Positions 38,973 through 40,907 of a DNA stretch of 64,000 nucleotides are shown in pieces (position 1 is the first letter of the stretch; every line of letters starts with the position of its first letter). Below the pieces are notes generated by a model. That model worked only from the letters and a program-made list of their open reading frames with translations. It did no database searches and was not told the DNA's origin. Position numbers and translations under genes: made by a program. The DNA comes from Escherichia phage N4: sequence record NC_008720.1. One strand, 5' to 3'.

Positions 38973-40907
38973 TTAACGAGGAAATATATCAGGGATACCC
39001 AATCGACGCCCGGCATCTCTGCCTAAACTTCTCCGGTTCGCCTCGCTCTCTTCCTGTTTAATATTTTGTAAGCTCTTAATATCCAAATTCTGAGGGTCAG
39101 CAGCTACAGCACTACGAGCACCATCAAGAAGACGTTTAGCAGTATTAACTCGCTCCTGATAGCGAGGTAGTACACTTCTAAGGTTTTCCTGACCGGTCTG
39201 AATACGACGCTGTACTTCACGTAAATCAGCAAGTGCAGTATCTAACGTATTCTGTGCTGCATAGATGTTTGATTGAATTTGTGCAGTAAGCTGATTACGA
39301 GCATTCTGTTCAATAGCAGTACCAGTAGTTGCAAGTTTTGCATTTGCTTCTACGGCTGCTTTATCCAGTTGGTAATCACCACCCAAATCAATAACATCAG
39401 TATCAAAGGCATTTCGAATACCACTAAACCATCCCTCTGGTTTACCAGTGATACTACGTTGAATGATTGCTCCTGCCATAGCGGGAGAAATAGCATTCTG
39501 TTTTGCTACCTCATTGATTTGTCGAACCAGTGCACCTTGATTAATGCCTTTCAGTTCATTGCTATCAATAATACGTTTAGCCACCTGACCAGTCGTAGAA
39601 GGGTCAACAGTAGCAGCTTGGTATTCTGGCAGCAGAGTATTACCAATATTCTGCATATTACGAGTACCAACAGTATTACCAGCAACAGAAGTAAATGCTT
39701 GTTCCTGTAATGGATTAATAGAATTACCTGTTTCTGCTTGAGCAATGTAATCCTTCATTTCATCCCATGACAAGTTCTTATAAGCACCAGGAGTATCATC
39801 TGGTAAAGCAGCCCATGTACTCTTCAAATTGCCATTCTTACGAGCATTAAAAATAGCTTCACCCAGTTTGTCTTGGTTCTCTGGGGACATAGGAATGTTC
39901 TGCCAATTTTCACCAAATACCTTTGGAGCAAAGTCTTTAAGGGTATCTTGGTTAATCTGGTATGCACCAACAGGAGAAGCACCTAGTGTCTTCTTCATAG
40001 TGTCTTGATGCTGAACCACCTCACCTAAGTTCATCTGAGTAATAGGTACATCAGTTGGTGTGAACTTGTAGGTAGTGTCATATGCAGAACCATTCCGAGT
40101 ACCATGAGTACCAGGAGGAGATAGAGGTGCAGAACCAGTTCCCGGAGTATATGCACCTGGGTATGCCCTATCTAACTGAGATAGAGCACGACTTACTGCT
40201 CCAGGTGACATTTGGTCGAACGTACCCTCTGCAAGCATACGAGCATCGTCAGAACTGTATGCACCACGACGGATATTATTCAGTAACTGCATAGCAGCCT
40301 GAGTATCCGCATCGTTACGCATATCAACACCTAAGTTGAATAGGCTACGACGTTGACCAATACCAGCAGTACCTTGTCCTTGAAGGTTGTTCATGTAGTC
40401 CATAACAATACCAGCAGGAAGGGTTTTTAATACATCCCCATACTGAGCCTGTGCTGCCTGAACCTTTCTTGGGTCACCAGATTGATAAGCCAGAGCCAAT
40501 TCCTGCAATGCAGGAGCAGCAGCATCAGTAGCTGCATTTACCTTCATGGTTCTGTCATTACTGTATCGAGTGAAATCCAGATTTTGTTGTTTAGATGCTT
40601 GGTCTAACAGATTGCCAGCACGATTATCTAAGTTCTCCATAGTGCGAGAAGAAATTAGAGAAGGGTCATAGCCAGCAAATAATGCTCCAGAAGCTAAGGC
40701 ATTACGATACTCATTAGGGTCTTGGTAACGCATGGCTTCAGCCATAATTGCATCACCAGCTTGCTGTCTTGCAGAGTTTCGAAAATCACCTAATGCATTA
40801 CTCAATCCGGCAGTGGCATTACCCAGCATATTGGAGAAAGTACGAATACTATCCCCAACACCAGAGAAAGAAGGAGCATCAACATTACGCCATGTAATTT
40901 GAGCCAT
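38973..40907 (-). CDS. Virion protein (N4 gp51 position), 644 aa
   Basis: ATG 40907 with SD AAGAGG. Ala/Gly/Gln-rich N-terminal half; a region (about nt 39710-40055) weakly resembles a lytic-transglycosylase-like segment (E...GASPVGAYQ...T), unverified. Confidence 0.5.
   Translation of the reverse strand: MAQITWRNVDAPSFSGVGDSIRTFSNMLGNATAGLSNALGDFRNSARQQAGDAIMAEAMRYQDPNEYRNALASGALFAGYDPSLISSRTMENLDNRAGNLLDQASKQQNLDFTRYSNDRTMKVNAATDAAAPALQELALAYQSGDPRKVQAAQAQYGDVLKTLPAGIVMDYMNNLQGQGTAGIGQRRSLFNLGVDMRNDADTQAAMQLLNNIRRGAYSSDDARMLAEGTFDQMSPGAVSRALSQLDRAYPGAYTPGTGSAPLSPPGTHGTRNGSAYDTTYKFTPTDVPITQMNLGEVVQHQDTMKKTLGASPVGAYQINQDTLKDFAPKVFGENWQNIPMSPENQDKLGEAIFNARKNGNLKSTWAALPDDTPGAYKNLSWDEMKDYIAQAETGNSINPLQEQAFTSVAGNTVGTRNMQNIGNTLLPEYQAATVDPSTTGQVAKRIIDSNELKGINQGALVRQINEVAKQNAISPAMAGAIIQRSITGKPEGWFSGIRNAFDTDVIDLGGDYQLDKAAVEANAKLATTGTAIEQNARNQLTAQIQSNIYAAQNTLDTALADLREVQRRIQTGQENLRSVLPRYQERVNTAKRLLDGARSAVAADPQNLDIKSLQNIKQEESEANRRSLGRDAGRRLGIPDIFPR

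Follow-up and report, generated by a model that had tools for sequence, protein, structure and literature searches.

The lytic transglycosylase family of phage lambda endolysin R carries the labels 'family 4' and, in CAZy, GH104. Lambda R itself (PDB 1AM7) is a free endolysin, whereas the domain considered in the present work is embedded in gp51, a 644-residue virion ejection protein of Escherichia phage N4, encoded within the window of 64,000 nucleotides that was analysed (sequence record NC_008720.1). A 2025 preprint describes gp51 as the periplasmic tunnel of the N4 ejectosome: it is predicted to form a helical tube, its density is gone in empty N4 particles, and the purified protein shows channel activity in bilayers (PMC12633501). 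According to the same work, N4 ejection probably needs peptidoglycan hydrolysis, yet no ejection protein appears to carry the activity, which may come in trans. gp51 has also been classed as a homologue of the IVP-C (T7 gp15-like) proteins, which sometimes host tail-lysozyme domains (PMC4819975), and some polyvalent proteins that contain a virion RNA polymerase (vRNAP) are fused directly to lysozyme domains (PMC5512222). The gp51 domain belongs to a known family, but combines an unusual active-site arrangement with an unusual host protein. On the strength of its sequence, it may represent the wall-breaching activity that the recent structural study found to be lacking among the N4 ejection proteins. 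The literature search yielded no paper describing a lambda-type domain in gp51; the nearest earlier trace is a single GenBank product name, 'lysozyme containing protein', given to the SP5M protein in the gp51 slot.

The evidence for common descent comes from profile comparison. From IMG/VR, 55 loci with a gp51-type domain and 76 with a canonical lambda-type domain, the latter gathered with a lead sequence other than lambda R, were redundancy-filtered to 45 and 51 sequences, respectively. When the two sets are aligned by hhalign, the local match has a probability of 99.1% (E 1.5e-18, score 116.5, 115 columns) and the global match one of 99.3%. All comparisons between gp51 and the lambda-R family fall between 99.1 and 99.4%, with E from 1e-18 to 1e-21. 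Ten column-shuffled templates and one reversed template reach scores of 8.7-14.2, against the 116.5 of the real match. A hidden Markov model (HMM) built solely from canonical members recovers gp51 as its only match among 906 six-frame open reading frames (ORFs) of N4 (32.6 bits, residues 272-392), and the gp51 HMM in turn scores canonical members at up to 54.9 bits, with N4 decoys at 3.3 bits or less. The core motifs of the family, namely the GYD strand, GxGRYQ, FSPxxQD and WASLP, all show significant profile similarity in gp51, and the hhalign match spans residues 31-149 only of lambda R. The hhalign and reciprocal HMM results together argue that gp51 residues ~272-394 are, with very little room for doubt, a member by descent of the lambda R lytic transglycosylase family. 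A sequence-only reading of this DNA had singled out positions 39710-40055 (gp51 residues 285-399, TDVPITQMNLGEVVQHQDTMKKTLGASPVGAYQINQDTLKDF...SPENQDKLGEAIF...) for a loose, weak resemblance to lysozyme-like domains; the quoted sequence is indeed present and lies in the most conserved part of gp51, and the resemblance clearly exceeds chance by the controls just given.

Within the family, the gp51 domain is on sequence grounds closest to a 'b-type' branch, with which it shares a PxTxMTxGE(V/I) helix. A permissive tblastn search from the gp51 domain reached two proteins of this branch, the 'lysozyme murein' of Synechococcus phage S-CAM22 (862 residues) and the 'lysozyme-like protein' of Rhizobium phage RHph_X3_9, which share the lambda R invariants L12, D13, E19, G65-R66-Y67-Q68, F86 and Q91; the IMG/VR loci L157-L181 also belong here. 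The b-type domains have in common with gp51 the helix 'P(L/I)TxMT(I/L)GE(V/I)', GRYQ, FxPxxQD and WAxLP, and several of them resemble gp51 in having no equivalent of the lambda 108-122 helix. All of them, however, carry an N-terminal 'LDxIAxxES' catalytic helix, which gp51 does not. Pfam does not recognise the b-type canonical proteins scanned, and the b-type domains encountered here seem to be uncovered by that database. The S-CAM22 protein (L073, 716..3304) finds no Pfam family at E 1 or better; in addition to its canonical lambda-type domain, it has what, judged by eye, resembles an M15/VanY-type peptidase motif (HSAGSLHYKGLAVDV...HPTHLH). Canonical and gp51-type domains together make up, on this comparison, a lambda-like family that goes undetected by Pfam in the members scanned.

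Searches that start from gp51 itself stop short of lambda R. The full-length protein has no match in Pfam, and among PDB sequences it finds its own entry only. PDB profile searches with gp51-domain alignments of 5, 15 and 34 sequences return only 11mn ('66 kDa protein', 359 residues, 10 chains), which is identical to gp51 residues 1-359, and never the lambda lysozyme, the sensitivity of HMM-to-sequence comparison being insufficient. A protein homologue search with a 131-residue segment gave no relatives (two candidates shared words), and the full-length and profile homologue searches gave, among the matches listed, only close relatives without Pfam domains. An AlphaFold2 (AF2) model of residues 281-398 has a predicted local distance difference test score (pLDDT) of 86 and a predicted template modelling score of 0.77, and consists of four helices with a small beta element around GAYQ; the full-length AF2 model is poor (pLDDT 54). 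A Foldseek comparison, which the sequence-only reading had suggested as a check, had a divided outcome. The domain model matched nothing in the PDB, but in BFVD the gp51 homologues are followed, at probabilities of 0.99-1.0, by baseplate-hub/gp5-like proteins, an M15B peptidase multidomain protein, a SAR endolysin transglycosylase and a 'lysin domain' protein.

The sequence-only reading, with a catalytic Glu ahead of a GA.G..Q...T region, corresponds to a different family, the lytic transglycosylases of the SLT/GH23 type, in which E296 of 'NLGEVV' would be the catalyst and a GLMQ-like motif would lie downstream of it. In a Pfam scan of 15 diverse gp51-domain sequences, SLT (PF01464) is indeed matched by the phiEaP8 member alone (E 0.007, 16.3 bits against a cutoff of 21.3, profile positions 34-80) and the Rpf-like 'Transglycosylase-like' family PF06737 by three members (E 0.06-0.8, 10.9-14.4 bits against a cutoff of 27), and a true SLT domain occurs in the same gene slot in phage ZC03. 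These Pfam matches are, however, all confined to the GxYQ...T part, all lie under the gathering thresholds, and none covers the helix of the catalytic Glu; the AYNxG motif that marks the SLT family is absent from gp51. A relationship of the gp51 domain to Rpf or SLT was rejected, the matches being sub-threshold only, and the match to the lambda-R family is far stronger (E 1e-18 or better). E296 fares no better as a catalyst. Across the 70 gp51-type sequences in which residue conservation was counted, it is E or D in only 60 and Q, S, A or K in the other 10, and in the AF2 model it stands at the N-terminal, not the C-terminal, end of helix alpha-1. The 'MT.GE(V/I)' motif around it recurs in canonical b-type members with a separate catalytic Glu, and E296 is therefore a helix feature of the family rather than the catalyst. 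An SLT-type enzyme that uses E296 is essentially excluded. What survives of the original suggestion is the domain type, a lysozyme- or lytic-transglycosylase-like module in a podovirus ejection protein; the family, which is lambda-R-type and not SLT/GH23, and the catalytic residue had to be replaced.

In the canonical enzymes, the catalytic residue (Glu19 in lambda R) is carried by an N-terminal helix, 'LDxIAxxE(S/G)', which is present in every member and has no counterpart in gp51. In the local hhalign match, the first gp51 residue is 274, whose lambda R equivalent is residue 31, and a forced upstream extension has zero confidence; residues 253-287 fall below a pLDDT of 50 in the full-length AF2 model; and an HMM of the canonical N-terminal helix has no match in any N4 reading frame (best E 4.4). 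Neither lambda R residues 1-30, with this helix and E19, nor the helix at ~108-122 are represented in gp51, which instead has an invariant Glu, E392, at the end of its last helix. A possible remnant of the N-terminal helix in the divergent relatives L061-L070 was rejected, as the stretch in question is the GYN strand. Conservation of gp51 as a whole is concentrated in the domain, where 11 of 19 invariant columns lie within residues 314-392 (14 diverse full-length homologues, 26-49% identity), and the block at residues 309-322 is the highest-confidence part of the hhalign alignment. E343 is not conserved, and E392, the sole invariant acid, still lies within positions 39710-40055. A large gp51-type subgroup (L010, L011, L012 and many IMG/VR loci of L040-L059) has an insertion of 14-20 residues between the equivalent of alpha-1 and GxYQ, with the conserved pattern 'NTLIPxTRGxxGxGPxxG(T/S)(G/S)A', which N4 lacks.

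The surroundings of E392 resemble those of the canonical catalytic Glu. Its place in helix alpha-4 is the C-terminal end, and V, S or T comes next, then G, S, A or V. The N4 sequence 'DYIAQAETG' parallels 'DFIAQPESKG' of RHph_X3_9, and the metagenomic 'VRDKIIQVESAGG' parallels the canonical 'IRDLIASVESIGG'. Compared as a profile, the tail of gp51 (residues 372-406) scores 18.7 against the canonical N-terminal helix (P 4.8e-5) and places E392 on E19, above all of 100 column shuffles (mean 5.7, maximum 12.3), while the score of the tail against the canonical C-terminal helix (10.0-10.1) amounts to noise, even with that region re-aligned. When the tail is put before the core, the hhalign score increases from 115.5 to 126.1 with all templates, from 121.2 to 132.8 with b-type and from 76.8 to 82.0 with lambda-type templates, and the match extends over the catalytic helix with E392 aligned to lambda E19. 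The E392 helix could thus have arisen by circular permutation, or the acid could have moved onto a pre-existing C-terminal helix. The predicted place of E392 is in the cleft, where it would act as general acid.

The interpretation tentatively preferred here, evenly balanced for its full mechanism, is that gp51 residues ~272-394 form an active lambda-type enzyme that uses E392. The compact lysozyme-like domain of lambda-R descent, inserted after the N-terminal helical region of gp51, keeps the glycan-cleft motifs GxYQ...T, SPxxQD and WAxLP and has lost the N-terminal helix with the equivalent of lambda E19. The IAQxE-S/T/V-G motif, in which its last helix ends, looks much like the canonical catalytic helix, and the E392 within it would be the acting residue. 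During infection, gp51 would be expelled after gp52 and assemble the periplasmic tunnel, and its domain would engage peptidoglycan strands. With E392 as general acid, the bond linking N-acetylmuramic acid with N-acetylglucosamine (MurNAc-GlcNAc) would be cleaved locally, presumably at this point in time and space, and the tunnel, followed by vRNAP and DNA, could then cross the wall. A more far-reaching reading, put at somewhat below an even chance, makes gp51 the missing peptidoglycan cutter of the N4-type ejectosome: an active lambda-type transglycosylase, built into the tunnel protein, in which the catalytic Glu would have shifted to the C-terminal helix from the N-terminal one, by circular permutation or by migration of the residue.

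Several observations weigh against the preferred interpretation. The canonical catalytic helix and its Glu are absent in all 70 members examined, and by the family's own hallmark, the E19 helix, the gp51 domain could be catalytically dead. In the 2025 structural work on N4, its authors saw no peptidoglycan hydrolase among the ejection proteins (PMC12633501), and the literature search gave no zymogram evidence for N4 virions, nor any report of MurNAc-GlcNAc cleavage to 1,6-anhydroMurNAc by N4 virions or gp51. A paired HMMER test gives no clear preference between the native and the permuted order, the latter being ahead in 24 of 79 cases (p 0.07). A C-terminal helix at the place of alpha-4 is already found in the closest canonical relatives (L160, L161 and others), as in '...ISWKDALQRFAEGG' of L160, and a true circular permutation is for this reason uncertain.

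The main rival explanation, which deserves serious weight even if it is rated well short of even, is that the domain is a catalytically dead lambda-type relic. Its glycan-binding cleft would have been kept as a peptidoglycan-binding or anchoring module that places or stabilises the gp51 tunnel, and cutting would be left to host enzymes or be unnecessary. No member has the helix that bears the one catalytic residue known for the family, and the cleft motifs are strongly conserved nonetheless; activity supplied in trans is, moreover, what the structural study proposes (PMC12633501). The position equivalent to E392 is variable in canonical members and often K or R, and its invariance in gp51 could be structural, for example in a salt bridge. 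On the other hand, E392, invariant and placed at the C-terminal end of its helix ahead of S/T/V-G, imitates the catalytic motif, and the resemblance extends to the profile of the catalytic helix. The domain is also the most conserved part of a fast-evolving protein, in phages of hosts from Escherichia to Burkholderia, and analogous slots in other podoviruses hold active-type domains. The analysis names one residue, E392, for a direct mutational test of the wall-cutting idea. Should the domain prove inactive, it would clearly exemplify the reuse of an enzyme fold for wall binding in a machine that delivers DNA.

The distribution of the domain bears on a further alternative, in which the conserved segment is purely a structural or protein-interaction module of the ejectosome, such as a tunnel tip or a vRNAP docking site, and its lysozyme ancestry is irrelevant to present function. 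By tblastn, 136 phage records contain the gp51-type segment, each time in the gp51 slot of a member of the Schitoviridae; the hosts are Escherichia, Klebsiella, Shigella, Achromobacter, Erwinia, Pseudomonas, Stenotrophomonas, Burkholderia and Xanthomonas. A vRNAP homologue is encoded in 381 phage records, so that the domain is detectable in 36% of them and the remaining 245 are without a detectable copy. In tallies of organism names, Vibrio, Rhizobium and Salmonella appear among the vRNAP matches and not among the domain matches, and Pseudomonas drops from 97 to 6. The absence of the domain from so many records is compatible with a structural role, as are the all-helical DEV gp72, which forms a tunnel without such a domain, and PDB 11mn, whose last residue, 359, falls within the domain. 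The invariant residues, however, are the sugar-binding motifs of the family and not a novel surface, and in lineages that lack the gp51 domain the slot can be filled by a different muralytic domain. A purely structural role is regarded as improbable.

One such lineage is that of the Pseudomonas schitovirus ZC03. Its gp16 (831 residues; L015, 19493..21988), confirmed as a virion protein by proteomics, sits exactly between the vRNAP gene and a gp52-like gene, as gp51 does, and carries a canonical SLT domain at residues 336-443 (Pfam E 2.5e-18) with the motifs RAES, AGLMQV and AYNLG. As a single sequence, ZC03 gp16 has no meaningful hhalign match to the gp51 alignment, so that its SLT is not an orthologue of the gp51 domain but another domain that occupies the slot. 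This has the look of a muralytic module displaced by a non-orthologous one inside one and the same ejection cassette. In N4, a Pfam scan of the gp50 N-terminus, gp52, gp53 and gp54 detects nothing muralytic, and the gp51 domain is the sole muralytic candidate detected in the cassette.

Table 1. Positions in the window of gp51, its neighbours and the features of its lambda-R-type domain (residue numbers refer to gp51; counts are out of 70 sequences)
Feature	Position	Strand	Remarks
gp51 coding sequence	38973..40907	-	644 aa + stop; ejection protein, proposed periplasmic tunnel (role: PMC12633501); ORF list
gp50 virion RNA polymerase (vRNAP)	28370..38890	-	neighbour, same operon; ORF list; vRNAP annotation in related loci
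gp52	40918..41370	-	150 aa; outer-membrane pore ejection protein (role: PMC12633501); neighbour, same operon; ORF list
Putative lambda-R-type lytic-transglycosylase-like domain, residues 272-394	39726..40094	-	hhalign; canonical HMM 32.6 bits; AF2; BFVD neighbours
Gly/Pro/Thr-rich linker, residues 250-271, PGAYTPGTGSAPLSPPGTHGTR	40095..40160	-	occupies the place of the canonical N-terminal catalytic helix
Y276-D277	40077..40082	-	'GYD/GYN' strand after the catalytic Glu; hhalign SAYD vs lambda HGYD (31-34); D277 54/70
Helix alpha-1, residues 294-308, LGEVVQHQDTMKKTL	39984..40028	-	contains E296 (E/D 60/70); DSSP on AF2 models
GASPVGAYQINQDT, residues 309-322	39942..39983	-	lambda 'STGAGRYQLL' substrate-cleft motif; G314 and T322 70/70, Q317 69/70
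SPENQDK, residues 341-347	39867..39887	-	lambda 'FSPKSQD' (hhalign); Q345 67/70
TWAALP, residues 364-369	39801..39818	-	lambda 'IWASLP' (hhalign); W365 70/70, L368 68/70
Helix alpha-4, residues 381-393, WDEMKDYIAQAET	39729..39767	-	resembles the canonical catalytic helix (profile P 4.8e-5)
E392	39732..39734	-	sole invariant acidic residue, 70/70; candidate catalytic acid

The gene neighbourhood (Table 1) is that of an ejection cassette. The gp51 ORF lies directly upstream of the ~3500-residue vRNAP ORF and is flanked on its other side by that of gp52, and the order of a gp52-like small membrane-protein gene, gp51 and vRNAP on one strand holds for the window and for every annotated homologous locus examined. 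gp51 thereby occupies the position of the periplasmic tunnel, the IVP-C analogue, in the Schitoviridae ejection cassette. In PHROGs it matches PHROG 6126, 'virion structural protein' (E 3.6e-277). A homologue with 58% identity from a JGI source (P0002) is named 'cell fate (sporulation/competence/biofilm development) regulator YmcA', almost certainly a mis-annotation. PDB 11mn corresponds exactly to gp51 residues 1-359 (39831..40907, minus strand), and ends within the lysozyme-like domain before W365 and E392; it is absent from the accession codes given in PMC12633501, and was not returned when the domain model was compared by Foldseek with PDB entries released up to 2026-04-08. The mechanically derived vRNAP ORF begins at a TTG six codons upstream (38872..38890, minus strand; MYRKPT-MSVFDRL..., 3506 residues), and the published length of 3500 residues implies that the true start is the ATG at 38872. 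The GC skew across the window flips at ~28 kb, from positive before to negative after, which is also where a long run of minus-strand ORFs sets in with the vRNAP gene.

A wall-degrading domain on a protein of the ejection cassette is known from other podoviruses, as the sequence-only reading had anticipated. T7 gp16, with its N-terminal SLT, phiKMV gp36 and ZC03 gp16 follow the same logic as gp51 in a similar gene neighbourhood, and further cases are described for the IVP-C proteins (PMC4819975). phiKMV gp36 is an IVP-C analogue that carries a lysozyme of the phage T4 (T4L) type; its C-terminal domain was considered as a relative of the gp51 domain and rejected, the two being unrelated at the sequence level. 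A lytic transglycosylase mutant of T7 gp16 reportedly shows a phenotype at 20-25 C and on stationary-phase cells. The ZC03 SLT, the phiKMV T4L-type lysozyme and the N4 gp51 domain show that different wall-degrading or putatively wall-degrading domains thus occupy the cassette in different lineages. If the gp51 domain is active, it would complete the mechanistic parallel of the N4-like phages with T7, phiKMV and P22, and a well-studied family of enzymes would gain an active site of rearranged architecture. In its role as periplasmic tunnel, gp51 is comparable to T7 gp15 and DEV gp72, yet these two are described as alpha-helical throughout, without an enzyme-like domain (PMC11445570), whereas gp51 has an extra lysozyme-like module. 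The T7 and ZC03 domains are of the SLT/GH23 type and that of phiKMV is of the T4L type, and all of these keep their canonical catalytic Glu, unlike gp51.

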